DNA of 64,000 nucleotides from an uncultured Chloroflexia bacterium (GCA_963842805.1 CAWJIA010000016.1:83075-147074); one strand, 5' to 3'. Shown: positions 1 through 27,608, counted from the stretch's first letter. Numbers and translations are program-made. Notes: generated from the letters alone by a model not told the origin.

Positions 1-8
1 AATATAGC

Positions 9-1220
9 ATGTCAAAAACTATTGCTGTGATTGGAGCTTTTGACACCAAAGGGGAAGATTTTGCATTTGTTAAAGCAGAAATCGAGAAGCGCGGTCATAA
101 AGTGTTGCTCGTCAATGTTGGCGTTTTGGGCGAATCTCCTTTTAAAGTGGATATTTCATCCGAAAGGGTGGCCGAGGCTGGCGGCGTTTGCCTGAAGGAA
201 CTCCGTGAAACGCGAGAACGAGGCATGGCTATGCAAGTAATGACTAAAGGAGTTACCCATATAGTAATAAATCTATACCACCAGGGCAAGATTGATGGTG
301 TTTTCGCCATGGGTGGTTCTGCTGGGACAGCTCTTGGCACCTCAGCTATGCGTGCCTTACCGATTGGCGTCCCCAAAGTCATGGTGAGTACGTTAGCCTC
401 TTTAGACACGAGAGCATATGTAGGAACTAAGGACATTGTACTGTTCCCCTCTGTAGTAGATGTGGCTGGGGTCAATAGTATCAGCGCTCGCATTTATGTT
501 AATGCTGTCGGTGCAGTCGTCGGCATGGTTGAGGCATCGCTACCGGAAATTAAGGATAAAGCGCTCATCGCTGCTTCTATGATTGGCAACACCACCGTCC
601 TTGTCAATTGCTGCAAGGTAATATTAGAAAGACATGGTTATGAGGTGCTGCTATTCCACGCTTCAGGTGCCGGCGGACAGACGATGGAGAGCCTTATAGA
701 AGAGGGCCGCATCAAGGGAGTGCTTGATGTTAGCTTATGGGAACTGGGCAATGAACTCATAGGTGGTATAATGTCAGCAGGACCAACACGGCTTGAGGCA
801 GCAAGTAGAAGAGGCGTGCCCCAGGTCATTGTTCCTGGTGGCCTGGATCTAGTAGGCTTCTGGGAATTGAATACTATACCCGCGAAATTCAGAGGCCGAC
901 TGTTTTACGAATGGAATCCCAATGTAACCTGTATGCGGAGTACACCTGAAGAAAATAAAAAACTAGGGCGCTACATTGCAAAGAAGGTTAACAAGTCCAC
1001 CGGGCCGGTGGCCTTGTTTTTGCCCCTTAAAGGACTGTCTACATTAGACGCTCCTGGCAAGCAATTTTGGTGGCCAGAAGCCGATGAAGCCCTGTTCGAT
1101 GCTATTAAGAAACATCTCCGTCCTGATATTCCAATCTATGAGATAGATAGCAACATTAATGATGAAGGCCTGGCGCAGGCTGTTGCTAGCAAACTGATAG
1201 AATTTCTGAATCCGAGCTAA
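9..1220 (+). CDS. UPF0261 (Tm-1-like N-terminal domain) family protein
   Basis: 403-aa ORF. N-terminus MSKTIAVIGAFDTKGEDFAFVKAEIEKRGHKVLLVNVG and overall pattern recalled as the UPF0261 family. Function unknown. Confidence 0.55.
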   Translation: MSKTIAVIGAFDTKGEDFAFVKAEIEKRGHKVLLVNVGVLGESPFKVDISSERVAEAGGVCLKELRETRERGMAMQVMTKGVTHIVINLYHQGKIDGVFAMGGSAGTALGTSAMRALPIGVPKVMVSTLASLDTRAYVGTKDIVLFPSVVDVAGVNSISARIYVNAVGAVVGMVEASLPEIKDKALIAASMIGNTTVLVNCCKVILERHGYEVLLFHASGAGGQTMESLIEEGRIKGVLDVSLWELGNELIGGIMSAGPTRLEAASRRGVPQVIVPGGLDLVGFWELNTIPAKFRGRLFYEWNPNVTCMRSTPEENKKLGRYIAKKVNKSTGPVALFLPLKGLSTLDAPGKQFWWPEADEALFDAIKKHLRPDIPIYEIDSNINDEGLAQAVASKLIEFLNPS

Positions 1221-1553
1221 AGCAATAAAACTCGGCCTCTATCAAGAAACATAATGAAAAAAAATAAAAAATCAATTGTTAAGCATATTCCCTTTGAACG
1301 GCTAAAGCTTTGGTTAGCTGACCTGGCTTTATCACGGGGCAAAATACTATCGGCTTACCAATTGTGCCTGGATAATCACCTGCGATAGTATACCAGTTCG
1401 GTTAGCTAGTACACAGTAGGCACAAAAAGAAGGGCCATAAATCATATCTTGTATTCAATTGATGTGGCAGGTGTTCCTTCTTATCACCCATAAATAATCT
1501 CTTCATGAGAGTTTATTGTTATAGGTATGAGCTGTACTATGCCATTTCTTAGA

Positions 1554-3179
1554 TTAAACCGCCCGCTGTATGCTATTATAAGGACACACTTGAGAGCATA
1601 CTTGACAACCAATACAACGATTCTCATCTACGCGCGGCGATAGCCTATCATTGTTTTCGCACGGTAATATTGCAGCACAATCGATTACCTCTAAACATCT
1701 ATTACATACGCTGCATCCCAAGCACCTTTTTGCCTCCTGTATGGCTTGGTCCAGCGTGAATCCCAAATTCACTTCTTTGAAGCTGTGGACTCTGAGCCTT
1801 GTTGGTAGTACTCGTGCTCTTTGGCGCTCCCTAGGGATTATGACCTCAGGTAGCATCCTAGGTCTTCTCATGACACGAACTGCAGCTTCTTCTTTCAGAT
1901 TCTCGCTCTTGAGATACCTAGAGATTGATGCCGCAGCTTTCTTCCCAGCTGCCATAGCCTCAATAGCTGTTCTGGGCCCGGTTTGAACGTCTCCCCCAGC
2001 AAAAACGCCGTCTCTAGTTGTAGCTAAGGTTGAAGGGTCGACAATTATATTTCCATGTTTATCGATTTCTACACCGGTAGCTTTGGTTAAGAAAGATAAA
2101 TCGGTAGTTTGACCAATTGCCACAATCACCGTATCAGCATCCAGATTAAACTCAGAATTTGGTATCGGTATCGGTTGTCTTCTGCCGGATGCGTCATGCG
2201 CTCCCAACTGCATGCGTGCACATCTCACTGCTGTGACTCTTCCATTAATAGCATGGATTTCAGAAGGGGCCACTAAACACTCTATTTTAACCCCTTCGCT
2301 CTCTGCCGCTTCAATTTCTGTGTCGGTCGCTGGCATTTCTTCTATTGATCTTCTATAAAGAATAGATACATCGGAATCCAATCTCACTGCACAGCGTGCA
2401 GCATCCATAGCCGCATTTCCACCCCCAATTATGGCAACCTTTCTTCCGAGTCTTACTTCTTTACCCAAATTAAGTTCACGTAAGAAATCGATACCATAGA
2501 AAACACCGCGGGAAGCTTCTCCAGGGATGCCTAATGTCTTACTACTATGGGCGCCCGTGGCGAGAAAAACAGCTTTGTAATGCCTGCGAAATAGGTCATC
2601 GATGGTCAACTCCCTGTTTATCGGGGTATTGGTCCTTATTTCAATTCCAAGTCGTACAATGCGATCAATTTCTCTTCTAAGAACTTCTTTTGGTAATCGG
2701 TATTCGGGGATTCCCGCGTACAACATGCCGCCTACAAACGGGAATGCTTCAAAAATGGTCACCTTGTAACCTAATTTACTTAAATAGTACGCACAGGAGA
2801 GTCCCGCCGGCCCCGAACCCACTATTGCTATCTTTTCACCATCTAGCCTTCTATCTGTAGTCGGCATTTCAAGAATATTATTTCCGTAGTCGACTGCCGC
2901 CCGCTTGAGATCTAAAATGGCAATTTGTTCATCTACCTCACCCCTCCTACACTTGCCCTCGCAGGGAGCATAACAAATACGGGCACAGACTGAGGGCAAT
3001 GGGCACTCACGCATGATTAGGTTAAGAGCTGCACTAAAATTGCCACGTGCAATGGCGCTAATATATTCTTGAACGTCTATTCCCAAGGGGCAAACCGATT
3101 TGCATGGCGCAACATCTATGCTCCAAGATAAACATCTATCCGTCTCAATCTTTACTATTGGTCCTAATAGTGTCCTCAT
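1554..3179 (-). CDS. GltD-family NAD(P)H-dependent FAD oxidoreductase with N- and C-terminal [4Fe-4S] domains (SudA/NfnB-like electron-transfer subunit)
   Basis: Dinucleotide-binding motif IAIVGSGPAGLSCAYYL and a second one VAIIGGGNAAMDAARCA. Cys clusters occur at both ends (CIGCQVCSQVCP at the C-terminus). The likely start is ATG at 3177-3179 (MRTLLG), with a GAGAGGG SD-like sequence upstream. The track ORF extends to 3218. Confidence 0.7.
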   Translation of the reverse strand: MRTLLGPIVKIETDRCLSWSIDVAPCKSVCPLGIDVQEYISAIARGNFSAALNLIMRECPLPSVCARICYAPCEGKCRRGEVDEQIAILDLKRAAVDYGNNILEMPTTDRRLDGEKIAIVGSGPAGLSCAYYLSKLGYKVTIFEAFPFVGGMLYAGIPEYRLPKEVLRREIDRIVRLGIEIRTNTPINRELTIDDLFRRHYKAVFLATGAHSSKTLGIPGEASRGVFYGIDFLRELNLGKEVRLGRKVAIIGGGNAAMDAARCAVRLDSDVSILYRRSIEEMPATDTEIEAAESEGVKIECLVAPSEIHAINGRVTAVRCARMQLGAHDASGRRQPIPIPNSEFNLDADTVIVAIGQTTDLSFLTKATGVEIDKHGNIIVDPSTLATTRDGVFAGGDVQTGPRTAIEAMAAGKKAAASISRYLKSENLKEEAAVRVMRRPRMLPEVIIPRERQRARVLPTRLRVHSFKEVNLGFTLDQAIQEAKRCLGCSVCNRCLEVIDCAAILPCENNDRLSPRVDENRCIGCQVCSQVCPYNSIQRAV

Positions 3180-3180
3180 A

Positions 3181-3453
3181 TTAGTTACCCTCTCTTTCAT
3201 CAGGTTCCCTCCTGGCATATAGTAAGTTTATTCTCCCCAGCTCAGCTATTTCACCGCCGCTCACAAGAGGTGTTAGAGGCTGCTTCATTGCCTTATCGGC
3301 ACAGCGAAAACACCGCGTGGCGCATGGACATGAGTCTGTATATGGGCAATTGATATTGCAAATATAACATAGGCTTTGGCAGATTCGGCTGCCTACGGAC
3401 TGGAATTGCCAGACCAAAAATTTCGGACTACCACTATTTCTAAAGTCTCGCAT
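3181..3453 (-). CDS. small Cys-rich protein (8 Cys; possible metal/Fe-S binding partner)
   Basis: 90-aa ORF whose TAA stop (3181-3183) lies 1 nt before the proposed GltD-like start, a translational-coupling-like layout. Cys pattern CQSLCYICNINCPYTDSCPCATRCFRC. No family recognised. Confidence 0.35.
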   Translation of the reverse strand: MRDFRNSGSPKFLVWQFQSVGSRICQSLCYICNINCPYTDSCPCATRCFRCADKAMKQPLTPLVSGGEIAELGRINLLYARREPDEREGN

Positions 3454-3533
3454 GTTAACTTTCGTTACTCAAGATTTGTCTCATTCTATGATGAGTACAG
3501 CAGTGACAAATATTAGTCCGTTACATCCTTTCT

Positions 3534-4781
3534 CTACTTAGGCAAGTAAAAATTCCTTCTAGAAGGAGCTGCGGTGCGAAAATATTCGGGCATATATCGT
3601 TCCTGCCCCACATTCCTGTTAACCTCACACCGTAGCCCTAATCCATGCCTTGTACGTCGCAAGCAGGCAAGACATCTGATACACTCTCTAATCCCCATCC
3701 CCTGAGCGTTGGCGACCTTATTCACCCACTCCGGATCCGCTATAAGTGGACGACATAGTGAAACCATGTCGGTTTTTCCTTCTCTTATTGCGTTTTCCAC
3801 ATTCAAGGGATCATGTATTGCCGGTGTTATTATAGGTATCTTTACAGTTCTTTTCATTGCTTCAGCCTGCGGAAGCATAGTTCCATCCTCTTCGGGAAGG
3901 TACCACTTGACTGCTTCCCAGCAACCAGCTGTTAAATGTATATAGTTTAGACCTAATTCCTCACCTATCTTGGCTATACTAGCGCTTTCGCCTATACTTA
4001 GCCCCCCTGGCATATTCTCGTCGCCAGTTAAGCGAACGCCGATAACAAAGTCAATGCCTACTAGCGATCTCGACTTTTGGATTACATTACGAAAAAATCT
4101 AGTTCTGTTATCAAAGCTACCACCATATTTGTCAGTGCGAATATTGGTACGAGGGGACAAGAAATTGTCTCCAAGATACCCGTGGGCAAAATGGAGCTCG
4201 GCACCATCGAATCCACACTCCTTCGCCAATTGTATCCCCTTAGCGTAAGCACTCTCAATCCATTCAATTTCTTCTATTGTCAGTTCTTCAGGTACCGGGC
4301 AATTGGTGTACATCTCCCAGAGGCAGGATAATCCCCTGCGAGCCTCGTACTCTATCTCACCTTTGGGTATATTATCTTTGGGAATGCCCACGACTGGCAC
4401 CGGAGAAGGAGCTTTGCTTTTTGCCCCCTTACTCTGGCGTCCGGACCCGCCTGCAAACACTTGGATAAACAATTTGGCGCCGAAAGCGTGAACGGTTTCC
4501 ACCAGTTCATTCCACGCTGGTAGGTCTGTTTTATTCGAAAGTGAGGGCACAAGGACATGCAGCGGAGTACCAGGCATTAGATATCCCCCCGGACCTGATA
4601 TGACAAGGCCTGCACCTCCTTTTGCACGTGCAGCAAGAAATGCGATATGTTCTTCGGTAATATGACCATCTTGTGAAAAATTATTGGTAACTGGTGCCAT
4701 GACCAATCTGTTCTTTATCTCAACGTTACCAATCTTGATGGGTTTGAACATCTCAGTGAATTTATTAGATTCATCCACCAT
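3534..4781 (-). CDS. Old Yellow Enzyme family NADH:flavin oxidoreductase (ene-reductase / 2,4-dienoyl-CoA reductase-like FMN domain)
   Basis: N-terminus FKPIKIGNVEIKNRLVMAPV is typical of OYE. The TIM-barrel FMN-domain pattern is present, and a C-terminal Cys cluster RECIRCLACLRR follows. Confidence 0.8.
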   Translation of the reverse strand: MVDESNKFTEMFKPIKIGNVEIKNRLVMAPVTNNFSQDGHITEEHIAFLAARAKGGAGLVISGPGGYLMPGTPLHVLVPSLSNKTDLPAWNELVETVHAFGAKLFIQVFAGGSGRQSKGAKSKAPSPVPVVGIPKDNIPKGEIEYEARRGLSCLWEMYTNCPVPEELTIEEIEWIESAYAKGIQLAKECGFDGAELHFAHGYLGDNFLSPRTNIRTDKYGGSFDNRTRFFRNVIQKSRSLVGIDFVIGVRLTGDENMPGGLSIGESASIAKIGEELGLNYIHLTAGCWEAVKWYLPEEDGTMLPQAEAMKRTVKIPIITPAIHDPLNVENAIREGKTDMVSLCRPLIADPEWVNKVANAQGMGIRECIRCLACLRRTRHGLGLRCEVNRNVGQERYMPEYFRTAAPSRRNFYLPK

Positions 4782-5007: not shown

Positions 5008-5661
5008 CTATTGCTCAGCCAGTGTTTGCAACATCATATGTATGAAAGCTAAAACGTCATCTTGTCTACTACTTGCTCTGAGTCCAATCTGCCTGCTTAG
5101 CCTATTGTACTCATCCATTCTTTGTGCCTCGTTTAGGGTTAGCAATTCCTTGCCTTTGATATCATTGTTGCCCAGTGCCTTTTTTAGTCGACCCAGTAAC
5201 TCTGTCATAAGCTCAGTACCAACATTCTCGAGCTTATATTCATGTTCCGCTCTGTCTCCTTCAGCTCGTATATTCCCCTCATTCAATCTATATGTTTTTG
5301 TTTGGACGCCATCCGTCACTGATACCTTCGATATCTCTACTGGTAAGCGACCAATCAACTTGACCGCTGGATAAGGGCCTGAACGAGCAATCACGAGCCT
5401 ACCAATATCTTCAGTCCTACGAAGCACATAATACTTAGACAGTTCGACACATTCCTGTTCAAGACCCATTACCTCGCTCCAGCCATCCTTCCACTCCAGT
5501 AAGAGATATTTTTGTGGCGCTGGCGTCACCGCTGAGTCTGGCAACCCGGCCAACTTGGAAAGTTCGGTTTGTAAACTGCTACTCAATTTGGAGAATTCAA
5601 TCTCTCTCTTGGACCCGTCACCAAATTCAACGATCAGTTGCTGTGGTTTACTTTTCGACAC
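5008..5661 (-). CDS. hypothetical protein (operon partner of UbiD/HAD-like genes)
   Basis: 217-aa ORF with no recognised motif. Its start lies 1 nt after the stop of the upstream HAD-like gene. Confidence 0.45.
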   Translation of the reverse strand: MSKSKPQQLIVEFGDGSKREIEFSKLSSSLQTELSKLAGLPDSAVTPAPQKYLLLEWKDGWSEVMGLEQECVELSKYYVLRRTEDIGRLVIARSGPYPAVKLIGRLPVEISKVSVTDGVQTKTYRLNEGNIRAEGDRAEHEYKLENVGTELMTELLGRLKKALGNNDIKGKELLTLNEAQRMDEYNRLSRQIGLRASSRQDDVLAFIHMMLQTLAEQ

Positions 5662-5662
5662 T

Positions 5663-6433
5663 TCATTTCCCCTTTACAATATCTTTAAGTTGAGAGAAAC
5701 TAGATATGACATAGTCAGCTTTTGACGGGCCCCAGTCAAAATAACCGGTATACTGAATTGTCTTGAACCCCCGCTGCCGTGGTGGTTCAATGTCTGTCAT
5801 GATCTTATCCCCTACCATTACTGCCTCCGAAGGCTCAATTCCCTGGCTGCTCAAATCCTCAACCAGTAAGTCATATAGCTCCCCTGATTCCTTAAATCGA
5901 CCTTTGTATCTCGCATCAACCGAGCCATCTCTCAAATCAACTTTACCCTGAGGCGTAATTAACTTACTAAAGTACTTTATGAGTTTTTTCCTTTGCAGAA
6001 ACATTGTCACGACATCTGTACCAATTGGCCCGAGCGTCTTCTTCATCTCAGCAACGATACAAACAGTAATACCTTCATCAAGGAGGTATTGAAGCGTTTC
6101 TTCAGCGCCTTCCGCTGGCTTCAGAAGTTGCTGCTCTTTTTGCAGGAAAAGATTCATCGCTTCCTGATCATTGTCAAATACATAACTCAAGATTTCGTCT
6201 TTATGCCCTTCCTTAACGTTCGAGTAAGTTCCATATTTCTCTTTCAAATTGTGATACTTCTCGATCGTCTCATCAATAAGTTCAGGTTTGCCAATCTCTT
6301 TGCAAATGTCTCCAAACATCAACGGATTTCGTAGTCCTCGGGGGTCCATGAGACATTGCCCGAAATCTATCCCGCACCATTTCACCGTAATTCCCATTGT
6401 GCAAACCTCCCAATTGTTTATAAGATACGCCAC
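5663..6433 (-). CDS. HAD-like hydrolase superfamily protein (phosphatase-family subunit?)
   Basis: C-terminal VMVGDKIMTDIEPPRQRGFKTI fits HAD motif IV (GDxxxD). The N-terminal GIDFGQ is only a partial match to motif I. Confidence 0.5.
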   Translation of the reverse strand: MAYLINNWEVCTMGITVKWCGIDFGQCLMDPRGLRNPLMFGDICKEIGKPELIDETIEKYHNLKEKYGTYSNVKEGHKDEILSYVFDNDQEAMNLFLQKEQQLLKPAEGAEETLQYLLDEGITVCIVAEMKKTLGPIGTDVVTMFLQRKKLIKYFSKLITPQGKVDLRDGSVDARYKGRFKESGELYDLLVEDLSSQGIEPSEAVMVGDKIMTDIEPPRQRGFKTIQYTGYFDWGPSKADYVISSFSQLKDIVKGK

Positions 6434-6490: not shown

Positions 6491-7921
6491 TTATGCCAGG
6501 CTTTCTAACCCATATTCTTTCCATTCTTTTTGTATTTTCTCGACCAGCTTTGCATCGAGTCGAATCACTTCCGGTTTTTCCTGCCAGTGATAAGGAATAC
6601 AACCATCTACCAACAGCGTTGAGTTCAGCGCATATGGATACTTCAATTTAGGCTCTATTCCAGGATCGAGGTAGCTACCTCGGCGTCCTTTAAGTATCTC
6701 AACACTCCTATCCGGGTCAAATCTCTGAATCACCGACCACAAAACCTTGGTCCAATCATCCGGCTCAATGTCATCATCCACGGTGATAAATAGCTTATTT
6801 GCATAACTACCCATAGGGGTGGAAGCGGCTGCACTCAAAACTTGCTTTGAATGACCAGGGTACATTTGCTTCACAGAGATGATGAAAAATCTTTGACTCG
6901 CGGGATGCATAGCCACCGACTTAATTCCTGGTATGCCAGTATCCTTAAGTTCTTTCCATAGACGGCCACAACGACCGATTGCTGCCATAATGTGCGTATC
7001 TGTAATGGGTCGTCCTACAGTGCTGGCCAAATAAATAGGGCTGTTCCGGTGTAGAACCCGTTTTACTTCAAAAACAGGTTTATTGGTTGGCTTTCCCGAA
7101 TAATACCCCGTTGCCTCACCAAACGGTCCTTCTAGTTGCCAATTGGCTCTATCAGGGTCGATCTCCCCTTCAAGTACAATCTCTGCATCTGCCGGTATGG
7201 GAAGATCAGTCAAATCGCTAATCACGACTTCAATGGGAAAACCTGCAATTGCCCCAGCAATATCATATTCAGATACGCCAAAAGGGGCTTCAGTCCCAGA
7301 GACTGTAAAAAGCACGGGAGGGCCACCGAATACTGCTGCAACTGGCATTTTCTTTCCCTTCTGCGCCCATTTCTCCATGTGAACCCATCCGTGCTTTCCC
7401 GGCTGAATCATAAGTCCAACATGATTCTTATCCAAAAGCTGGCCTCGATAGGTTCCAAGATTTACCCAACCGGTATCGGGGTCTTTTGTTACCAGGCAGT
7501 AGTTCGTGCAGATGTATCTTCCTCCATCATCAGGATAGAATTTGGGAACCGGGAATTTGAGTAAGTCGATGTTGTCTCCTTCAATTATATTCTCAAATAC
7601 AGGGCCCTTTCCCACCTTCTTTGGAGGCACACCCTGTCTGCTTATTAAGTCGACCCATTTCGTAGTTATCTCATGTAGCGAAGATGAAGGCGGCATATCG
7701 AATTCACGGGCAAAACGCCCAAGGGTACCGTACTGGCTGGTTAAAACGGGAATATCACAATCTTTGACATTTTCAAATAGGAGAGCGGGACCACCCTTTT
7801 CCTCAGTAAGTTTCGCAACGTGAATCAGTTCAAGATTCCAATCAACTTGCCTTTTGATTCGTATCAGGTCTTTATTCTTCTCCAGCTTGCTTATAAACTC
7901 TCTCGTATCCTTCGATGCCAT
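6491..7921 (-). CDS. UbiD-family (prFMN-dependent) reversible decarboxylase/carboxylase
   Basis: 476-aa ORF. The N-terminus MASKDTREFISKLEKNKDLIRIKRQVDWNLELIHVAKL and overall profile are typical of the UbiD family, including phenylphosphate carboxylase subunits. Confidence 0.85.
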   Translation of the reverse strand: MASKDTREFISKLEKNKDLIRIKRQVDWNLELIHVAKLTEEKGGPALLFENVKDCDIPVLTSQYGTLGRFAREFDMPPSSSLHEITTKWVDLISRQGVPPKKVGKGPVFENIIEGDNIDLLKFPVPKFYPDDGGRYICTNYCLVTKDPDTGWVNLGTYRGQLLDKNHVGLMIQPGKHGWVHMEKWAQKGKKMPVAAVFGGPPVLFTVSGTEAPFGVSEYDIAGAIAGFPIEVVISDLTDLPIPADAEIVLEGEIDPDRANWQLEGPFGEATGYYSGKPTNKPVFEVKRVLHRNSPIYLASTVGRPITDTHIMAAIGRCGRLWKELKDTGIPGIKSVAMHPASQRFFIISVKQMYPGHSKQVLSAAASTPMGSYANKLFITVDDDIEPDDWTKVLWSVIQRFDPDRSVEILKGRRGSYLDPGIEPKLKYPYALNSTLLVDGCIPYHWQEKPEVIRLDAKLVEKIQKEWKEYGLESLA

Positions 7922-19091: not shown

Positions 19092-19232
19092 CATTTTACA
19101 GGATAGTGCACACGTAAGTCGTTGTAAATCCCCCAGAGGCGCTATTTGCGCAAGACCAAGGGCTAGTGTGGAATAGCTCTAATGTATTACCAGACTCACA
19201 TATCGCCACTCCTATTTCTTAGCCTATTTCTT
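19092..19232 (-). promoter_or_regulatory. repeat element copy 2 (promoter -35/-10 plus palindrome); homology to the copy-1 region continues to ~19560
   Basis: Minus strand: -35 TTTACA (19123-19128), 17-nt spacer, -10 TATCCT (19100-19105). GCGCTATTTGCGCAA is present. It lies ~330 nt upstream of the gene 17086-18762. Confidence 0.6.
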
Positions 19233-19390
19233 AGCCGCTTTTTTAGGACTTTTGAAAGATTGTCCCATGTGGCTGGGAGCCCTGCGATACGTGAGTAAAT
19301 TACCATGCTACCGGCTTTCCAGTCGATGGAAACAGCGGTGATATCACCATAAACACGTTCCAGGAATGGCAATGGAACCGCGGCATCCAT
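19196..19390 (-). pseudogene. truncated paralog of the receiver-like gene 9657-9983
   Basis: The 64-aa ORF MDAAVPLPFLERVYGDITAVSIDWKAGSMVIYSRIAGLPATWDNL matches the C-terminal half of the 108-aa protein. The 5' half is missing and the flanking homology shows an internal deletion. Confidence 0.5.
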
Positions 19391-19648
19391 TTGCTTAGTA
19401 TCTAGCTCGTCCTGACCTGATACCTGTTAGAAATAACTAGTGCTAATTCCAAGAAAGTCAACTTCCTAGTACGCCGCATTTATCGAATTAAATAGGTTGT
19501 CAATAGGGTGTAGGCCAACAGCAGTATTCTCCGCACATAGACCTTATTTCTGCAACTAACCCTTTTTGGGCTATATTTTGCTTTGCCGAAACCCTTGAAG
19601 TATAATCAATCGTATACTAATTCTTGGACTAAAACAGCGCTTCATTAG

Positions 19649-20356: not shown

Positions 20357-20507
20357 AATCTGGGTGGCGCCACCTTTTACTCGCAGGTTCTGGTATAAGT
20401 TGATCATAAAAAAACTAATTAAGCAGGGGACGTAAAAACGCTAACGCCAGGTAGGTAAACTAGTTTTCCATAGAAGAGTCTGAACAAGTACTTCAGTGTC
20501 TATTCTT

Positions 20508-21782
20508 TTAGGAATTTCTCTTGTTTTTGTCTCCCATAAAGTAGCCTACCCAATAATGCCAAGGTCTGATTGAAAGCAATTCATCGTCAAGAACTGTTTT
20601 TTCTAACTCTGCCAGGTTATCTTTTCTTAGCATCTTTGAAAACAGTAAGCCAGCAAACTCACAGCTATTGATTAGTTGCACGCCTGCCAACCTTTTTTCC
20701 GCAATAATTAACCTATAATATCTTGAGCCGGTAGTCCTTTCGACCACATCGTAGTCATTCTGGCTTTTAAAGCAGGCCGCAGACTTCCCAAAAGATAACG
20801 CATAAGTGCCAAAGACTTCCAGACTAGTGGCGTTAATAGAACCTATAAACCTTCTTCGTTGCCCAGCACAATTAAAACCTGCGATCGATCCTTGCCTCCT
20901 TGCATTGGGCCAAAGCAGGCTTAAAGTGTTCTCGCTGGTGACAGCGTCTTTTGCCTCAATGCAATCGCCACAAGCATATATATTCTCCATGTTTGTCGCC
21001 ATATAATCATCGGTTCTTATGCCACCGTGGGATCCAATCTCCAATCCCATAGTCTCCGCCAATTCCGTGTTTGGCTTTACACCCACTGCCATTATAACCA
21101 TGTCGCATGGTAACTCATTGCCATCAGTGACTATACCTTTCACGCTTTCATCACCGATGATCTCACTCGCTTTTTTTTCTGTTAGAATCTTAATGCCCTG
21201 ACGTTCCATTATTTCCCTAAGGATTGAAGATGCGCAGTCATCAAAAAGTCTGGGTAATATACGATTAAATAGTTCGATAATACTCACTTCTAGCCCCTTT
21301 TTACGAAAAGCTATAGCCATCTCAATCCCTATGGGGCCAGACCCCACAACAACAACTTTCTTAGCGGGGTAATCGAAGATAAATTGGGCATCATCGATTG
21401 TCTTTGGAGCGAAAATCCCTTTCTTACCAACCCCTTTAATGGGGGGAATAACAGGTTTGCTACCTGTTGCCAAAACAAGCTTATCGAATTGGATACTTTT
21501 GTCGTCAATGACAACTTCTTTTATTCGAGCGTCTACCCGTGACACCTTGTTACCAAAGATTACTTTTATCCTATGCTCAGAATAGTCCTGGGACTTTTTG
21601 AGGAATAGTTTTTCTTTCTCCATCTCGCCCGCCAAATACTTATAGAATGCACACGGAGAATATAGTGGATATCTCTCTTCAGAAATAATCGTAATACCAA
21701 CATCTCTATCGAATTTTCTAATTGCTTCGGCAGCGCTATTTCCTGCAATGCCATTACCTATGATTATGATATCTTGACTCAC
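20508..21782 (-). CDS. FAD-dependent pyridine-nucleotide-disulfide oxidoreductase family protein (AorC-like NAD-binding subunit of tungsten AOR)
   Basis: IIIIGNGIAGNSAAEAIRKF is an FAD-binding motif, and VVVVGSGPIGIEMAIAF is a second Rossmann fold. The gene is immediately downstream of the AOR gene. Confidence 0.65.
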   Translation of the reverse strand: MSQDIIIIGNGIAGNSAAEAIRKFDRDVGITIISEERYPLYSPCAFYKYLAGEMEKEKLFLKKSQDYSEHRIKVIFGNKVSRVDARIKEVVIDDKSIQFDKLVLATGSKPVIPPIKGVGKKGIFAPKTIDDAQFIFDYPAKKVVVVGSGPIGIEMAIAFRKKGLEVSIIELFNRILPRLFDDCASSILREIMERQGIKILTEKKASEIIGDESVKGIVTDGNELPCDMVIMAVGVKPNTELAETMGLEIGSHGGIRTDDYMATNMENIYACGDCIEAKDAVTSENTLSLLWPNARRQGSIAGFNCAGQRRRFIGSINATSLEVFGTYALSFGKSAACFKSQNDYDVVERTTGSRYYRLIIAEKRLAGVQLINSCEFAGLLFSKMLRKDNLAELEKTVLDDELLSIRPWHYWVGYFMGDKNKRNS

Positions 21783-21852
21783 GGAACGTACTCTCCTCTA
21801 TAAGACAAATCTAGAAACGCTCGACCTCGATAGGCTAATTGTTTCTCCCGGC

Positions 21853-23823
21853 TTAGTTGATTGGATATCCTGATTTCTCAAGGTCATCAACAATGTCTTT
21901 GAGACCGACATCTACAAGTTTCTTTCTTGTTGGTATCCCAAGCTGCGTATCCCACCCGCTTTCGTTGTAGAAATCATCCAGTATTTGTTCACAGTCGGCG
22001 GGCGTTAATCGTTTTCCCCAATAGTCTTCTAAGTGAGTCTCTATCCCATGTCTTATCACGGGCTCAAACCATCGATCAGGAAATTTATCATCTTTCCGCG
22101 TGAATCCTTCGCGTAGATTAAGAACCTTGAGCAAGTTGTATGATCTCGTACCAACTGCCAACAATTCACTTGATGTTATTTCTAAGCCAGTTACTGCCTT
22201 GTAAATTTCAACAGCTAATCTCATGTCATAGACTAAACCACCCCTCTCCCTTTCACACCCGATACCGAGCGAGTTAAAAATAAGGTTCCGTTCTTGAGTC
22301 CACTTAGTTAGGCGGCCAATGTTGTATCTACCAGGTTTATCGAAAATTCTCTCAATCGCGTCACCAGGCAAGCAGGTCGCTTCAGCCCACTTCTTAGCTA
22401 TTAGGTGAGCATCAGGTAGATCTCTCGTCATGTATAACGACATAATGGGTGCTCGCCCAGGATGAGCTCCTTTTGGATAGACAACCTGACCAAACTCAGT
22501 TATGCTTAGCCTGTTTATCCTAGCATCATAAAGGGGTGGCATTCCCTTGACATGTATGGCAAGCTTATCACAGCCTCTGCCAATCTTCTCGATACCGCTC
22601 AGCATCCCGCTGCCAAGGATGCTACCGAAATCTTCGTTTTGTGCTACCTGGGTAGCGAGTTTAATGGTGGTATCGAAGTCCCACTCAAGTGCCTGACCAC
22701 CTGTATCTTCCTTGGTTATTATGCCATTCTTGTACAATTCAACAGCCCAATCTATGATAGCTGTCAAATCATGTACACACAGGCCCATTCGCTGAAAATA
22801 ATCAAGGCATTTTACGAAACGGTTGAAACTTCCAACATTGGTGCGAGCTGCAAAATTTTCTAATCGCCCATAAAAGGATGAGCCATATGTGTCAAGACCA
22901 GCAAACTCGCCATCTCTTATCCGTACATGGTCCTTACAGCCTACCGGGCATGAAAAACAAGCAATTCTATCCCCCCTGATATTTTTTTCATATACCTCCC
23001 AGCCGTATAGTTTGCGAGCCTCATCAATCGAGAACGTTGTGGCCCAGTTCTTTTGAGAGGCTCCTTGCCTTTCAAACCAAACGGGAAAACCAATCATTGT
23101 TCCTAGTTCAATAAGTCTTCCGAGATTAGGGTCATTCTTAACACGCTCTATAAGTGGAGAGATTATTTGTTTGAGGTGATCAGGCTCTGCAATCTTCAGT
23201 CCCTTGCTACCATTCGCTACAATGGCTTTCATCTTCTTGGAACCCAGTACAGCCGGTAATCCGCCTTTGCCCAAAGTATGTACTTTGTCCACTAGGCCGA
23301 CAGTTGTATTCACCATGCGTTCACCGGCAGGGCCTATGGTAAATACGGAAGCGTTGTCATGCTCCTTCCATAATATGTCGGTGGTTTCAAAAATGTCTTT
23401 GCCCCATATGTGAGTGGCATCACAAATTTCAGCGTCATCGTTCAATATATTTAAGTAAACGGGTTTATTTGACTGGCCGACTATAATGACGTAATCATAA
23501 CCTGCCCATTTCATCATAGGCCCAAAGTCACCTCCGGCATGTGAGTTCTCAATAACGCCGTAGGTTGGGTGCTTGAAGAGGGCAAATACTCTGCTGCTCG
23601 CAGGTACTGGTGTGCCAACAATAGGACCTGCGCCGAGAATTACAGGACTATTCTCATCGAAAGGGTCCATTTTCGGCGGGATAAGGTCATAGGCCAATCG
23701 GAAATTTATACCCTCAGGACCTATATATTTCCTAATCAGTTCTATGTCGAGCGCTTTTTTTTCAATAGAACGGGTCGTCAAGTCCACTTTGAGGATACTT
23801 CCTGCATAACCTCCGATTTCCAT
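21853..23823 (-). CDS. aldehyde:ferredoxin oxidoreductase family tungsten enzyme (AorB-like)
   Basis: The N-terminus MEIGGYAGSILKVDLTTRSIEKKALDIELIRKYIGPEG is the canonical AOR N-terminal domain. At 656 aa the length fits. Confidence 0.85.
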   Translation of the reverse strand: MEIGGYAGSILKVDLTTRSIEKKALDIELIRKYIGPEGINFRLAYDLIPPKMDPFDENSPVILGAGPIVGTPVPASSRVFALFKHPTYGVIENSHAGGDFGPMMKWAGYDYVIIVGQSNKPVYLNILNDDAEICDATHIWGKDIFETTDILWKEHDNASVFTIGPAGERMVNTTVGLVDKVHTLGKGGLPAVLGSKKMKAIVANGSKGLKIAEPDHLKQIISPLIERVKNDPNLGRLIELGTMIGFPVWFERQGASQKNWATTFSIDEARKLYGWEVYEKNIRGDRIACFSCPVGCKDHVRIRDGEFAGLDTYGSSFYGRLENFAARTNVGSFNRFVKCLDYFQRMGLCVHDLTAIIDWAVELYKNGIITKEDTGGQALEWDFDTTIKLATQVAQNEDFGSILGSGMLSGIEKIGRGCDKLAIHVKGMPPLYDARINRLSITEFGQVVYPKGAHPGRAPIMSLYMTRDLPDAHLIAKKWAEATCLPGDAIERIFDKPGRYNIGRLTKWTQERNLIFNSLGIGCERERGGLVYDMRLAVEIYKAVTGLEITSSELLAVGTRSYNLLKVLNLREGFTRKDDKFPDRWFEPVIRHGIETHLEDYWGKRLTPADCEQILDDFYNESGWDTQLGIPTRKKLVDVGLKDIVDDLEKSGYPIN

Positions 23824-23837
23824 AGTAACTTTACCTC

Positions 23838-24344
23838 TTAGCCGAACGCGATATTCTGAAGCATTTCGCTAAGTTTTCGAATAGCTTCCTTTCGCCTAAG
23901 TATCGCAGCTTCATCCAGCGTAATATATTCTATGGCTCCATAACTGCAGAATTTTGCGCACAGTGGTTCGCCTCCACATAAGTCACATTTCACTGAATGT
24001 CCTGCTTCAGCATCTATCGATATCCCGCCGAGGGGACAGGCAATCATGCACATGCAGCAAGCAATGCATCTGTCAGCGTCAACAACCATCGCCCCTGTTT
24101 TATCGTCCCTCGATATAGCGCCCATTGGACAGACATCTGCACAGAGGGGTTTAACACATTGGCGACAGACTACAACTACATTTACATTGACTGCCCTCAA
24201 TCTAATTGGCAAAAGCCTCGAACTCCTTGGAGCAACAATGCTTCCATGTTGCATTGAACAAGCCAGTACACAAAGCATGCACCCCACACATTTTGCTGGA
24301 TTCACAAACAATACTTTCGGCATGATCCCTGAGTCGCTAGTCAC
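23838..24344 (-). CDS. poly-[4Fe-4S] ferredoxin (AorA-like electron-transfer subunit)
   Basis: Four CxxCxxCxxxCP-like motifs: CVGCMLCVLACS, CRQCVKPLCADVCP, CIACCMCMIACP and CDLCGGEPLCAKFC. Confidence 0.75.
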   Translation of the reverse strand: MTSDSGIMPKVLFVNPAKCVGCMLCVLACSMQHGSIVAPRSSRLLPIRLRAVNVNVVVVCRQCVKPLCADVCPMGAISRDDKTGAMVVDADRCIACCMCMIACPLGGISIDAEAGHSVKCDLCGGEPLCAKFCSYGAIEYITLDEAAILRRKEAIRKLSEMLQNIAFG

Positions 24345-24544
24345 GAAATGATGGCGTTAAAAAATTCTAGTAGGCATTGAGAACCTAACTGCTTTTTGTT
24401 TAGTACATAATTTTGCTTAAAAGATACTTCGTTAGTATTTTTATCGTACTGTGTTATGGCTTATATACTGGATACCTCTAGTTTTCAGCGGCTTTCATTT
24501 TTAATTTGGATCTCTAGCCCTTAATGTTACTCGCATATTATTCA

Positions 24545-24678
24545 CCTTTAACAGGATAGTGCACAAGTATTTCATTGTAAATCCCCCACAGGCGCTATTT
24601 GCGCAAAACCAAGGGCTAGTGTGGAATAGCTCTAATGTATTACCAGTCCCCATATCGCTACTCCCTATTTCTTAGCTG
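24545..24678 (-). promoter_or_regulatory. repeat element copy 3 (core only)
   Basis: Minus strand: -35 TTTACA (24576-24581), 17-nt spacer, -10 TATCCT (24553-24558). GCGCTATTTGCGCAA is present. It lies ~200 nt upstream of the aorA-like start at 24344. Confidence 0.6.
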
Positions 24679-24967
24679 AGTTTATTATAAGGGCCTCCCA
24701 TTTTTTGTATCAGCCTTAATGTAATTTTGCGGATCACATTTAGCCTTTGCAGCCGTCAATGCGTATTCGAGTGGAGCCAGATTCCCCAGCGCTCTGTGAG
24801 GCCGATCTCTATTATACTGCCGCCGCCAAGCGTCGCCTTTCTTCCGCCTGTACATTCCGTCAGATTGTTAGCCTGAACTGGAAGAATCGAATGCCTGGAC
24901 TACCTGTTCAACAAAAGATTGCCAGCCATAGTCTTTTAGTAGTTACGGCAGTCTATGACAGTCGTTG

Positions 24968-25207
24968 CTATGTAACACGGATTGTTTGGCAGGTAGTGGT
25001 GCGCTCAATGCCGCCAACCTTGTGAAGATGCCCGGTGATAAGCTTCCCCAGGGAGTCAACTGAGTCGCCTTCCACTTCTGCGATGATATCATAGGGTCCC
25101 ATCACAGCATCCACAGATTTGACACCGTCGAGCTTTTTAAGCTTGTTGAGTACTCCCTTAGTCTGGCCTACTGATGTGGTGACGAGTGCAAAAGCTTTGG
25201 CTACCAT
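24968..25207 (-). CDS. small Lrp/AsnC-type ligand-binding (RAM) domain protein
   Basis: 79 aa. FALVTTSVGQTKGVLNKLKKLDGVKSVDAVMGPYDIIAEVEGDSVDSLGKLI resembles a stand-alone AsnC C-terminal domain. Confidence 0.45.
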   Translation of the reverse strand: MVAKAFALVTTSVGQTKGVLNKLKKLDGVKSVDAVMGPYDIIAEVEGDSVDSLGKLITGHLHKVGGIERTTTCQTIRVT

Positions 25208-25564
25208 AGTATCACCCCCATATTTTCAGACTTTAGCTCGCAGCATTAGCTTTGCGCGTCACTATTGCCTAAAATTCTTGTACACCTCTTTTAAGCCACT
25301 TTGGCAAGGTTAAGCCATATGCCAAGTTTTCCCTTTTCTCGTCTTCTGTGACTTCCTTGTTTGTTTCACTCTCTCAGTCACCCCTGGCCTGAAGGAGTTA
25401 CGATTGACAGCCAAAAGAAGCTAGAGTGCCGCCCTGCACGATTTCCGAGTAAAAAAGAAATGAAGGATACTTCGCATTGCGCTAACCTAGGACCATTATT
25501 ATCGAACAACTGACGCCAAGCCGTGTATTGACGTACATCATCATATGACATAGACTGAATCTGG

Positions 25565-25927
25565 ATGCCAAATAAGATGTTGAACAGCGTGGATTATTCG
25601 TGGTTAGAGGTAATAAAGAAATCACTTGATTCTCTTGACCGACTCGCTTCCAGATTAAGAGCCGCAAGTCCTGGAGAAACCAGAAACGATTCTGAACTCA
25701 GAATGATCATCGCTGAACTTGAGGAGAACGCGTCAAGGGTTTCGAGACTATTGTCATTCGATAATACCAGAAAAGTATTCTCGAAATACCACATCACTCC
25801 ACATGAACTCTACGTGCTGGCTGCAAGTATTGACGATGATACCCAGAAATCCCTCCTGAGAGGCAATACTGCGACATTGAATTTAATTGCTGACAGGTTG
25901 TCGATCTTTCTATTTCGGCGCAGTTGA
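25565..25927 (+). CDS. hypothetical protein
   Basis: 120-aa ORF with no motif recognised. It ends where the recombinase frame opens. Confidence 0.3.
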   Translation: MPNKMLNSVDYSWLEVIKKSLDSLDRLASRLRAASPGETRNDSELRMIIAELEENASRVSRLLSFDNTRKVFSKYHITPHELYVLAASIDDDTQKSLLRGNTATLNLIADRLSIFLFRRS

Positions 25928-27498
25928 AGTCGCTTCGTGACTATGCCACTATAAACGAGCATGTGGTTGTCAGAGAATTCGTGGATGAGGCGAAGAGCGG
26001 GAAGACTTCGGCGCGTCCGGAATTCAGGAAGATGATAGCTATGGCACGGCATAAGCCCAGCCCTTTTGATTTAATATTGATCTGGAAATATTCACGTTTT
26101 GCCAGAAACCGGGAGGACTCCATATTGTACAAAACCATGCTGCGTAAGATGGGAGTCCAGGTCGTGTCGATCAACGAACCGGTGGAAGACACCACTACCG
26201 GCAAGCTCATGGAAGCTATCATAGAGTCGATGGACGAATTTTATTCCGTAAATCTGGGTGATGAAGTAACCAGAGTCATGCGCGAGAGCGCCTCTCGTGG
26301 TTTCCATGTTGGCAGCCATACTCCTTTCGGATACAGGAGAATTAAGGTTCACGACGGCGGCAAGGAGCGGCCCAAGCTCGAGATAGAACCGGATCAGGCG
26401 CACATCGTTAAGCGCATGTTTGAGCAGTTGGCAATCGGAAAAGGCTTGACCGACATAGTAAAGGATCTCAACAGGGAAGGCATATCGGGGCCCAAAGGAA
26501 ATGGATGGAGCAAAACCACAATCCACAAGATTCTAACCAACCCGGTATATACGGGCGTATTGGTCTGGAAAAAGAGCAGCATGCGCAATCTGCAGCCTAT
26601 CAGAGTGAACGATGTTTGGGAAGCAATTATTGATACAGCTACGTTCGAAAAAGCCCAGGCTACGCTTAGCAGCAGGGCTTTTATTAATACCCATCCCCAG
26701 CGCTCGGCCAGCCACTATTTTCTGAGCGGATTGGCCAAATGCGGCTACTGCGGCAAAGCTCTGGTCGGGCAGGACGCCAAGAGCGGGAAATTCAACTACT
26801 ACGTCTGCGGGACACTACTCAAGAAAGGATCAGGCTCATGTAAATCACGCTATCTCAATAGCCGCAAGTTTGAGAGGATAGTTATCGACAAGATCAAGGA
26901 GCGCATCCTCACCGAGGAAAACTTGCGTGAACTGGTTCGGCTTGTCAATGAAGAGATGGACACTGCCTTCAGCGAACATAGAGACCAACTCGATTCTGTA
27001 TTGAAGGAAATAGCTGAGGTCAATAGAAGGTTGGACCGGTTGTACGATGCCATCGAGACAGGCAAGGTTACCCTGGACGATTTATCTCAAAGGATAAAAC
27101 AACTCAAAGAACAAAAGGTTAAATTGGAGTCTCAGAAATGGGAACTGGAATGGCAGATGAAAGCCAGAAAAGTTGAGTTGGCAGATTTGGAAACGGTAAC
27201 TCAGTATGTAAATGAGTTACGTGATCTGCTTACCGAGAGTTCGATTGCTGAGAGGAAGTCTTTTATCAAGAGCTTTATCAAGGAAGTAGTTGTGACAGGT
27301 GATAAGGCAGAATTGAAGTACACGATTCCCTTATCAAGCGATGGACCGCTGGCAGAGAACCTGGAGGTTCCCCACATTGTACGCTATGGTGGAGATAGGG
27401 GGATTCGAACCCCCGACCTCTGCGATGCGAACGCAGCGCTCTCCCAATTGAGCTATATCCCCGGAAAGGTTTTTATACTAACAAAGGGCTCTGGATAG
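25924..27498 (+). mobile_element. large serine recombinase, N-terminally truncated (catalytic Ser motif absent; probable pseudogene/remnant)
   Basis: The resolvase-domain interior (SISAQLKSLRDYA...FDLILIWKYSRFARN) is followed by a recombinase domain and a coiled coil. An in-frame stop at 25891 leaves no room for the Y-x-R-V-S-x-x-Q catalytic segment. The only start is TTG at 25924. The 3' end reads through the antisense tRNA-Ala. Confidence 0.6.
27387..27462 (-). tRNA. tRNA-Ala (anticodon CGC)
   Basis: The reverse complement gives GGGGATATAGCTCAATTGGGAGAGCGCTGCGTTCGCATCGCAGAGGTCGGGGGTTCGAATCCCCCTATCTCCACCA. The acceptor stem is 7 bp with a G3-U70 pair, there is a GTTCGAATC T-loop, and the anticodon loop is TTCGCAT. 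Confidence 0.85.
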
Positions 27499-27608
27499 TG
27501 TCAAGATTTCCGCACTAAAAAAAGAAGCCCGCCGTTTCCATCGCCGGCGCTATAAGCCGTACGACAAAACAGCGGGCAATCATTCTTCTTAAATTCTAAT
27601 TACGGGCT

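Follow-up and report, generated by a model that had tools for sequence, protein, structure and literature searches.

A stretch of 64,000 nucleotides from the genome of an uncultured Chloroflexia bacterium (GCA_963842805.1, contig CAWJIA010000016.1, positions 83075–147074; "the window" in what follows) begins with a low-GC block of catabolic genes that ends at a tRNA-Ala(CGC) gene and the remnant of a large serine recombinase gene. The initial annotation proposed that this block is a horizontally acquired island that integrated at or near the tRNA. The proposal is supported by base composition, by the far end of the island, which was found to the left of the window, and by the absence of the block from relatives, with the insertion placed at the very 3' end of the tRNA gene rather than within it. 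The features that delimit the island are as follows, with loci from other assemblies referred to by L numbers.

1–25893, with a further 1,722 nt beyond the left edge of the window, as far as L001:1022: cargo of the island, low in GC at 44.6% (composition, change-points)
24688–24867, minus strand: C-terminal relic of a DDE (rve-type) transposase (Pfam rve_3, 30.9 bits, cut-off 26.5, profile positions 43–67 of 67)
24968–25207, minus strand: small Lrp/AsnC ligand-binding-domain protein, 79 aa (Pfam AsnC_trans_reg; the exact protein is on record)
25894–27498, plus strand: 5'-truncated large serine recombinase gene (Pfam, homologue alignment, stop codon at 25891–25893)
27367–27392: attL-type junction, made up of the recombinase-end arm GTTCCCCACATTGTACGCTA and the core TGGTGG (27387–27392); the same junction is found at relatives' tRNA ends
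27387–27462, minus strand: tRNA-Ala(CGC), intact, at the position first annotated (ARAGORN; Rfam RF00005, 71 bits; 100% identical in L002–L005)

The GC content was 44.6% over positions 1–25500, 47.2% over the recombinase stretch (25501–27600) and 53.3% over positions 27601–48800. In 1-kb windows, the block had a mean of 0.445 (sd 0.013, n=25) and the core to its right a mean of 0.540 (sd 0.029, n=29; Mann-Whitney p = 3e-10). The gap of roughly 9–10 points first noted is therefore real, but the right side lies at about 53–54% GC and not at 57–68%; windows of 60 nt on that side range from 37 to 67% GC, and further low-GC patches occur to the right of tRNA-Ala at 36.0–37.15 kb (39%) and 48.8–53.4 kb (36.8%). 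The GC content of third codon positions (GC3) was 0.38–0.50 in 22 of the 22 genes left of 25.9 kb and 0.54–0.77 in the syntenic genes to the right, giving averages of 0.44 and 0.66 that are 0.22 apart, with no overlap between the gene sets. The tetranucleotide profiles of 5-kb pieces of the block correlated at 0.81–0.89 with the rest of the block and at 0.11–0.21 with the core, the core pieces showed the opposite, and Karlin's delta* between block and core was 66.

Maximum-likelihood GC change-points were located at 27338 on the right and, in window coordinates, at −1818 on the left (in contig L001), within about 50 and 90 nt, respectively, of the putative cores of the attachment (att) sites. 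The switch in composition thus coincides with tRNA-Ala and the recombinase remnant, as originally noted. GC3 switches twice, at ~25.9 kb from cargo (0.44) to recombinase (0.57) and again at ~27.4 kb. When computed exactly, the GC, GC3 and tetranucleotide profiles are bipartite and not smooth, and both the base composition and the codon usage of the block deviate from those of the host core in the manner of a genomic island.

The right side includes argC, surE, fhs, queA, glmS and pyrD, housekeeping genes that pass the curated NCBIfam cut-offs. A search with the flanking ATP-grasp protein (28489–29187) returned 80 loci in metagenome-assembled genomes (MAGs) of fen, peat, lake sediment and groundwater, and almost all of them carry the label Dehalococcoidia or Chloroflexota. 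The closest relatives are 93–97% identical, the best (97%) being that of fen_1075. The gene order hypothetical-332 (34677–35675), enoyl-CoA hydratase, hypothetical-204, RimI, thiamine-binding protein, PyrD, acyl-CoA dehydrogenase, FMN reductase, ATP-grasp and RRM protein is kept in more than 30 Dehalococcoidia genomes, and tRNA-Ala(CGC) comes after the RRM gene in all ATP-grasp loci scanned. The housekeeping genes and the conserved order identify the side with 53–54% GC as the host chromosome and the 44.6% block as the anomaly. The host is an uncultured member of the Dehalococcoidia of peat or fen.

The other end of the island, predicted to lie outside the window, was found ~1.7 kb to the left in L001, a 4.4-kb contig from another sample that carries the first gene of the window. 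L001 matches the window at 1631 of 1632 positions over the overlap and reaches 2,744 nt further left. Low GC (42%) persists until approximately L001:1000, beyond which an alpha/beta-hydrolase gene (138–941) is found and the GC content is back to 53%; by tetranucleotide profile, L001 942–2752 clusters with the block and L001 1–941 with the core. In fen_1075, a phosphotriesterase-like gene comes after tRNA-Ala, and its promoter region is matched by nucleotides 1–137 of L001. This end of the island also encodes (L001 1764–2165, window −980 to −579) a protein with the PF01982 domain of CTP-dependent riboflavin kinases, which have been described mainly in archaea.

These flanks bear on whether the block could be an assembly chimera, in which DNA from a lower-GC organism was misjoined to a Dehalococcoidia chromosome at a repeat, a tRNA or an insertion sequence (IS). 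No independent contig crosses 24.64–25.9 kb, contig L126 ends inside a 137-nt repeat and the contig of a sister strain ends in an IS3-family element, all of which would fit such an error. However, in an independent assembly the other end of the block is continuous with the hydrolase gene and the phosphotriesterase-like promoter region, which are neighbours of tRNA-Ala in relatives, and hence both ends map to one chromosomal slot. In addition, L126 is 100% identical to positions 19358–24637, and the recombinase relic beside the tRNA is present in the sister strain too. We regard a chimera as highly improbable, the least probable of the alternatives, though the region from 24.6 to 25.9 kb deserves checking against reads.

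The slot between tRNA-Ala and the alpha/beta-hydrolase or phosphotriesterase-like gene had different content in every close relative. In the window genome, the slot is 29.1 kb long, and the hydrolase beyond the low-GC block is 79–82% identical to the hydrolases of relatives. In fen_1075 (L002), the phosphotriesterase-like gene is found ~115 nt after the tRNA, followed by CysK and GlgX, while in the complete chromosome of MFD01476 (L005) there are 6.5 kb between the tRNA and the hydrolase, with a KatG-like gene first, then SDR, carboxymuconolactone-decarboxylase-like and other genes. UBA1162 is represented by L004 (11726–20696) and the metagenome contig L097 (10935–20774), which overlap with 100% identity over 8,817 nt. 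Here the slot contains 9.9 kb of unrelated genes running from the tRNA to a 24-nt repeat of the tRNA 3' end that sits ~130 nt from the hydrolase stop codon. By sequence inspection, these genes encode a thiamine pyrophosphate-dependent enzyme, a split transketolase, an oxidoreductase, an aldehyde dehydrogenase and an MFS transporter, and no integrase was visible in the 9.9-kb island.

Partial repeats of tRNA-Ala were also found in L009, L041 and L075, 3' relics of a recombinase gene beside tRNA-Ala in L012, L017, L021 and L008, and in eight more distant relatives the DNA past the tRNA was 7–16 GC points below the core side. In this lineage the slot is a hotspot at which DNA has been inserted repeatedly, and relatives do not share the block in synteny: it is missing from the closest of them (L002, L004/L097 and L005, with ATP-grasp proteins 93–97% identical), in which the flanks are conserved. 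The "empty" site of fen_1075 is itself not virgin, as L002 11812–11948 reads antisense as ...VLSKVHFGG, a relic of the last codons of a recombinase of the same family as that of the island, with the arm spaced as it is there.

Two proteins of the cargo are much less closely matched than the flanking ATP-grasp protein. The nearest non-self homologues, from metagenome contigs, are 72% (PpsA-like) and 78% and 73% (UbiD) identical, and the named relatives, ~45–50% identical, belong to the Thermodesulfobacteriota or Bacillota. No homologue of these two proteins above 78% identity was found in 5.8 billion proteins. The contrast between cargo homologues at no more than 78% and ATP-grasp relatives at 93–97% supports acquisition but names no donor. 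It also argues against the block being ancestral and vertically inherited, its low GC reflecting gene-specific bias and its absence elsewhere reflecting loss. Vertical descent is very unlikely in our view, as three close relatives have different DNA in the slot, in one case bounded by the tRNA repeat, the GC3 values are 0.22 apart without overlap, and the block is bracketed by matching ends and a recombinase of a tRNA-end-specific family (see below). What vertical descent has in its favour is that the far-end hydrolase is common to two relatives, that the MAGs are incomplete, such that absence elsewhere in the relatives' genomes is unprovable, and that a homologous gene module in L113 (see below) is also low in GC, which could be an intrinsic bias.

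The recombinase open reading frame (ORF) originally placed at 25924–27498 exists, and the recombinase-homologous frame begins slightly earlier, at 25894. It contains matches to Resolvase (from profile position 15), Recombinase (PF07508, 89.5 bits) and Zn_ribbon_recom (PF13408, 47.9 bits), and the best NCBIfam match is CcrB (160 bits over residues 4–469, cut-off 900). In an alignment with a full-length homologue of 551 aa in L033 (48% identity), which begins MKVAIYARVSS, the match of the frame starts at residue 21 of the homologue. The gene is truncated, as had been suspected: the Recombinase and zinc-ribbon domains are there, but the N-terminus of the resolvase domain is missing, with the first 20 residues including the catalytic serine, and no N-terminal recombinase fragment was found upstream of 25894. 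At least 1,396 related proteins, mostly from Dehalococcoidia, were retrieved at E<=1e-30; counts of motifs and C-terminal tails given here refer to the best 120. The Y.RVSS catalytic motif is retained in 116 of these 120. Full-length proteins are 84–87% identical to the remnant, the frame of which is otherwise open. As the catalytic motif is missing here but kept in relatives, the gene is a pseudogene lacking its nucleophile, and an island with an N-terminally truncated recombinase is now fixed, unable to excise with its own enzyme.

The 3' end of tRNA-Ala (27387) faces the block, placing the island directly beside a stable RNA gene. Recombinase homology stops near 27386, and the last 37 codons of the ORF, with the tail ...HIVRYGGDRGIRTPDLCDANAALSQLSYIPG, run antisense through tRNA-Ala and its upstream flank and should be annotated as such. 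The sister strain (L096, 97.9% nucleotide identity over 10.6 kb) has the same relic, shortened by a further 53 nt by an IS3-family element at the end of the L096 contig. In the window, the relic and the last catabolic gene are separated by a stretch with 25 C-terminal residues of the rve-type transposase, the small AsnC-type gene and an orphan 120-aa ORF with no database record. The truncated serine recombinase and the rve_3 transposase relic are the mobility genes of the island.

The sequence TGGTGG at the recombinase end is the complement of the terminal CCACCA of the tRNA. A common junction was found at five tRNA or tRNA-like 3' ends, consisting of a GTTC-N5-ATTGTAC-N4 arm, then TGGTGG, then tRNA-specific sequence. 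Because the junction is always TGGTGG followed by divergence into the specific tRNA, the exchange point must be within this hexamer or beside it. The far end of the block has TGGTGG-GCCTAAGT-GTACAATAAACAGAAC at L001:1016–1045, in which the recombinase-end arm recurs in inverted orientation after the core, and this arrangement of TGGTGG-N8-arm was found only there in 1.69 Mb of fetched sequence. The motif GTACAATN5GAAC occurred 5 times in 2 x 1.29 Mb (~0.6 expected), with three of the five at tRNA junctions and one, inverted, at L001:1030–1045 where the GC content switches. When joined, the two ends form a 52-bp site with dyad symmetry centred inside TGGTGG. Dyad-symmetric sites of this sort are typical of the attP of serine integrases.

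The initial annotation suggested looking leftward for a direct repeat of the tRNA-Ala 3' end. None of 13 nt or more was found in the window or L001, and the far end is marked instead by TGGTGG plus the inverted arm. Exchange at the CCA end would leave the tRNA intact and generate no long repeat, which would explain the negative search.

The integrative element would then span L001:1022 to window position 27386, a total of 29,109 bp. In the proposed mechanism, the CcrB-like large serine recombinase encoded at the tRNA-proximal end put the element at the extreme 3' end of tRNA-Ala(CGC). The attP, reconstructed as GGTTCCCCACATTGTACGCTA-TGGTGG-GCCTAAGTGTACAATAAACAGAACC, would pair with an attB made up of the CCACCA end of the tRNA and the downstream flank, and strands would be exchanged inside the shared hexamer. 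This would leave the tRNA intact, with the recombinase gene directly beside it and its frame extended antisense into the tRNA. A later rearrangement at the junction of cargo and recombinase would have taken the first 20 recombinase codons and the usual backbone genes; this junction now has a transposase relic in the window genome and an intact IS3 in the sister strain.

Under the CCACCA crossover, the predicted empty site is ...GGTTCGAATCCCCCTATCTCCACCA followed directly by GCGGAAAAGCACAATAATGGCGG..., whereas a site with extra bases, ...CCATAGCGTACACTTAGG..., would go with crossover at GTAC. The predicted circular junction is ...CACATTGTACGCTATGGTGGGCCTAAGTGTACAATAAACAG..., expected only where the recombinase is intact, and the tail of the recombinase in the circular form would be GGPKCTINRTFWLKFSLK. 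On the sequence comparisons, we somewhat favour this exact location for the crossover. Crossover at the palindrome GTAC with simple inverted ends was considered and dropped, as the near-identical recombinase ends of relatives join different tRNAs exactly at TGGTGG. A second, inverted remnant of the recombinase gene at the left end was also rejected because similarity did not extend past ~8 codons.

We consider it likely that the low-GC block of ~29.1 kb is the cargo of an integrative element that was inserted at the 3' end of tRNA-Ala(CGC) by the CcrB-like serine recombinase and has since been immobilised. Several points weigh against this reading. The donor lineage could not be identified among the cargo homologues. 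The left end was taken from the assembly of another sample (L001) and not from the contig of the window, and the junction at 24.64–25.9 kb was seen only in the window contig, with the recombinase ORF found on no other contig; the independent contig L126 ends at 24637, inside copy 3 of the 137-nt repeat. No long direct repeat of the tRNA is present, only TGGTGG is common to both ends and a single attR-type site was available, with no second intact element to confirm it. When dyad partners of the recombinase-end arm were sought by a plain Hamming scan with 26-mers, the L001 site was not among the top matches, and support for the far-end site therefore comes from the family motif, the spacing and the position. 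No attP-form junction was found in viral contigs by DNA pattern. Finally, the GC3 of the recombinase gene (0.57) differs from that of the cargo (0.44), and the backbone genes of intact relatives, encoding ~272-aa, tyrosine-recombinase-like 231-aa and 168-aa proteins, were not found in the island. Among the recombinase neighbours in intact relatives were genes with no Pfam match and Phage_integrase or PadR-like genes. The GC3 difference and the missing backbone mean that cargo and recombinase may have separate histories.

A two-step origin would account for this difference. A small serine-recombinase element would first have inserted at tRNA-Ala, and the low-GC cargo would have arrived later by IS-mediated or homologous recombination, replacing the backbone and the 5' end of the recombinase gene and leaving the recombinase a bystander rather than the vehicle. 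The transposase relic at 24688–24867 and the IS3 at the same junction in the sister strain fit this sequence of events, and the integration and cargo modules of Dehalococcoides islands are known to be discordant in history (PMC3146451). On the other hand, low-GC DNA begins immediately at the inverted arm and TGGTGG of the far end, with the change-point within ~90 nt, which makes the leftmost low-GC DNA the end of the element itself. Furthermore, the interior of the block yielded neither target duplications nor another set of element ends. We therefore judge two steps to be unlikely, although this is the strongest competitor to a single integration of cargo and recombinase together.

The recombinase relatives provide a wider view of the junction. 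Their C-termini form discrete classes after a conserved ...IVH/R-Y-GG motif, and each class corresponded to one tRNA where the DNA was fetched. A 514-aa class ending GGR* adjoins tRNA-Val(GAC) in L110 and a 529-aa class ending GGPLWTRTTDPGLIRTVL* adjoins tRNA-Ile(GAT) in L111. The full-length relative in L033 adjoins tRNA-Ala(CGC), and its frame likewise continues antisense through the tRNA. A T-arm antisense signature was present in at least 44 of the 120 tails. In viral contigs, a single-protein query found no close recombinase relatives, and an alignment query found 11 loci. The two closest with a tRNA, both IMG/VR proviral contigs, are integrated copies with the recombinase against tRNA-Val(GAC) (L115) or tRNA-Ala(GGC) (L116). 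The C-terminal tail would be rewritten by antisense tRNA at each integration, such that the tail of a database protein would reveal its target. The spread of the family through the class makes the Dehalococcoidia clades of 45–48% GC plausible donors of the island.

The far end of the element of an intact relative (L088–L093) could not be located, as the adjoining tRNA is only a fragment. In these loci (11527–11790), the recombinase may adjoin only a tRNA 3' fragment, with a second tRNA fragment next, and in L094 (4089–4223) a 44-aa N-terminal recombinase fragment precedes an intact recombinase. These arrangements are signs of tandem accretion and decay of elements.

The island points to a large, little-described family of tRNA-end-specific serine integrases. 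Tentatively, this large family may insert at the CCACCA terminus of many tRNAs (Ala-CGC, Ala-GGC, Val-GAC, Ile-GAT and others), and the swap of tails between the circular and integrated forms may tune activity or directionality. McMurdie et al. speculated likewise on the tail swap of the Dehalococcoides recombinase DsiB (PMC3146451).

The closest precedent is the group of islands at ssrA in Dehalococcoides, which have low-GC cargo and a CcrB-like serine recombinase of ~540 aa, DsiB, beside attL (McMurdie et al. 2011, PMC3146451). In all cases the 3' end of the DsiB ORF overlaps attL, the stop codon being reached only past the island boundary, even inside ssrA, and tandem and decayed islands pile up at the site (PMC3146451). 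The island described here shares with them the bacterial class, the low-GC cargo that breaks synteny, the CcrB-like recombinase directly beside its stable-RNA target, the ORF that runs antisense into the RNA gene across attL with a target-dependent C-terminus, and accretion and decay at a hotspot; the likeness to DsiB is drawn from the published description. It differs in that the target is tRNA-Ala(CGC), or other tRNAs in relatives, and not tmRNA, in the 6-nt core in place of a 20-bp repeat, and in its cargo of aromatic catabolism genes and not reductive dehalogenases. The six-gene integration module (DsiA, RecF-like, ParB, Mom, pseudo-tRNA) was not seen in the window island; in its place, intact relatives have a gene for a ~272-aa protein and one that is tyrosine-recombinase-like. 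Given the tRNA-Ala target, the 6-nt core and the different or missing module, the island was placed among broader serine-recombinase islands at stable-RNA genes in Dehalococcoidia. It is ordinary in kind but unusually well delimited.

By analogy, the recombinase resembles CcrA/CcrB of SCCmec in Staphylococcus in the order of resolvase, recombinase and zinc-ribbon domains, and both could be described as site-specific integrases of cargo cassettes. However, a score of 160 bits is far below the CcrB cut-off of 900 and does not make it an equivalog, there is no CcrA-like partner gene, and the target is a tRNA end, where that of SCCmec is orfX/rlmH. The use of tRNA genes as targets is mainly linked with tyrosine integrases, and ICEclc at tRNA-Gly is the classical tRNA-linked catabolic island moved by such an enzyme. 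Like ICEclc-type elements, the island has catabolic cargo at a tRNA 3' end, deviating composition and no counterpart in relatives. Unlike them, it has a serine recombinase, insertion at the CCA end and not inside the tRNA, no long tRNA-derived repeat and no conjugation genes that could be seen.

The cargo genes and repeats are as follows.

9–1220, plus strand: UPF0261-family protein (Pfam PF06792, PF23189; beside PpsA-like genes in L085)
1554–3218, minus strand: GltD-like Fe-S flavoprotein (Pfam Pyr_redox_2, Fer4_20)
3534–4781, minus strand: Old-Yellow-Enzyme-family (OYE) reductase (Pfam Oxidored_FMN)
5008–5661, minus strand: conserved 217-aa partner protein (same triad in L113, 44% identity)
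5663–6433, minus strand: HAD hydrolase (Pfam; L113 67% identity)
6491–7921, minus strand: UbiD-family (de)carboxylase, phenylphosphate carboxylase beta-like (TIGR02724; L113 73% identity)
8361–9389, minus strand: PpsB-like protein, N-terminal (ATP-grasp) part of phosphoenolpyruvate (PEP) synthase, 342 aa (Pfam PPDK_N, 325 bits)
9532–9668, 19094–19230 and 24547–24683, minus strand: copies 1, 2 and 3 of a ~137-nt repeat (repeat search, alignment)
10133–10507, minus strand: PAC_bac small protein (Pfam PAC_bac)
10510–11079, minus strand: UbiX-type flavin prenyltransferase (Pfam Flavoprotein)
11194–12432, minus strand: HMGL-like aldolase/synthase (Pfam, NCBIfam)
12471–13613, minus strand: CCG-domain Fe-S protein (Pfam, NCBIfam)
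13481–13825, minus strand: 4Fe-4S protein (Pfam, NCBIfam)
13818–15239, minus strand: GlcD-like FAD oxidase (Pfam, NCBIfam)
15391–16053, minus strand: low-molecular-weight phosphatase-like protein (Pfam)
16080–16856, minus strand: SDR (Pfam)
17086–18762, minus strand: PpsA-like phosphohistidine-swivel protein, 558 aa (Pfam PEP-utilizers)
19649–20356, plus strand: LuxR/GerE-type response regulator, divergent from the PpsA-like operon (Pfam GerE, Response_reg)
20508–21782, minus strand: FAD/NAD oxidoreductase of the aldehyde:ferredoxin oxidoreductase (AOR) module (Pfam Pyr_redox_2; L113 59%)
21853–23823, minus strand: AOR (Pfam AFOR_N/C; L113 60%)
23838–24344, minus strand: 4Fe-4S protein of the AOR module (Pfam Fer4; L113 63%)

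Most of these genes, though not all as first stated, are on the minus strand; those for the UPF0261 protein and the LuxR-type regulator are on the plus strand. The three copies of the 137-nt repeat are 80–87% identical with a ~105-nt core at 90% or more, and are found in the same orientation, each upstream of an operon. Copies 1 and 2 lie within a duplication of ~450 nt that covers a doubtful ORF (9657–9983). Neither an Rfam match nor informative covariation was found for the repeat. It may act as a common promoter or leader, which would fit co-regulation of the operons.

The label "phenol-type" initially given to this regulon is plausible in view of the PpsA/PpsB-like and UbiD/UbiX proteins, but it is indirect and the UbiD protein scores just below the cut-off for the phenylphosphate carboxylase beta model TIGR02724 (462.8 against 468.95 bits). 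UbiD relatives at ~50% identity are annotated as phenylphosphate carboxylase beta in Bacillota and Desulfobacterota. This is the single UbiD-family gene in the block, and with 208 bits against a cut-off of 565 for TIGR02723 there is no second paralogue to serve as PpcA. A split PEP-synthase-like kinase is recognisable at the domain level only, the 558-aa protein matching PEP-utilizers and the 342-aa protein PPDK_N.

The pps/ppc genes for anaerobic degradation of phenol are known from Thauera aromatica and Geobacter metallireducens. The block shares with them the PpsA-like, PpsB-like, HAD-family and UbiX proteins and one PpcB-like UbiD, but PpcA, a recognisable PpcC or PpsC, and the downstream 4-hydroxybenzoate-CoA ligase and 4-hydroxybenzoyl-CoA reductase were not found in the block, which instead carries the AOR module, the OYE reductase and the GlcD/CCG oxidase. 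As these components were not found, the substrate can be given only in general terms, and most plausibly the cargo would handle phenolic or aromatic-acid substrates anaerobically.

A related module is found at positions 8844–17742 of L113 (JGI Ga0315280_10000003), a metagenome contig of 613 kb. It includes the UbiD, HAD, partner, OYE, three AOR, GlcD, Fe-S and CCG genes, with 44–73% identity (OYE 32%). The order of the AOR genes is identical, and the trio of FAD oxidase, Fer4_8 and CCG proteins is also present, the FAD oxidase being 67% identical to its island counterpart. The OYE-family protein in the corresponding place is longer, with extra FAD/NAD(P) domains. The L113 module is largely low-GC (0.41–0.47 against 0.50–0.55 in the flank; GC3 0.40–0.45 against 0.52–0.63). 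The presence of a related module that is also low-GC in L113 marks the gene set as a travelling functional unit. The pair of PpsA-like and SDR genes is kept in L082.

Elsewhere in the window, tRNA-Glu(UUC) (37153–37228) adjoins a low-GC patch (39%) encoding a Pro/Thr-rich protein with a GC3 of 0.22 (region 35829–37228). The sister strain (L096 12212–13128) lacks 36565–37079 and diverges inside tRNA-Glu after 37195 into low-GC DNA with a TIR-domain gene, which suggests a second tRNA-linked hotspot. A sharper low-GC island at 48800–53400 (36.8% GC, GC3 0.31–0.35) lies between an enoyl-CoA hydratase gene and a 390-aa gene read as 3-hydroxyacyl-CoA dehydrogenase by inspection only. Its products are a 981-aa DUF4062-NACHT protein and two small proteins that weakly match HEPN-like domains (the Cas13c HEPN region and reverse transcriptase-associated HEPN), a content resembling that of a defence island. 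A glycyl-radical enzyme of the PFL2/glycerol-dehydratase family is encoded at 54921–57287 (654 bits, cut-off 678) in the core region with normal GC, and has weaker matches to 4-hydroxyphenylacetate and indoleacetate decarboxylases. Long antisense ORFs over real genes in the GC3-rich core, among them those at 29924–31090 (opposite acyl-CoA dehydrogenase), 41464–42393 and 46137–47696, are by-products of codon bias and not genes.

If acquired as proposed, the island would mean that an uncultured peat or fen member of the Dehalococcoidia has gained a whole anaerobic module for aromatic or phenolic compounds horizontally, which bears on which organisms degrade phenolics in peat and on how the trait spreads. 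It would also extend the architecture of the serine-recombinase islands at the tmRNA gene of Dehalococcoides to tRNA genes across the class. The full-length enzymes 84–87% identical to the remnant are candidates to try as tRNA-end integrases, with the reconstructed attP and attB as testable sites, and the family, if it behaves as suggested, would be a natural set of tRNA-end-specific integrases carrying metabolic cargo in uncultured anaerobes.

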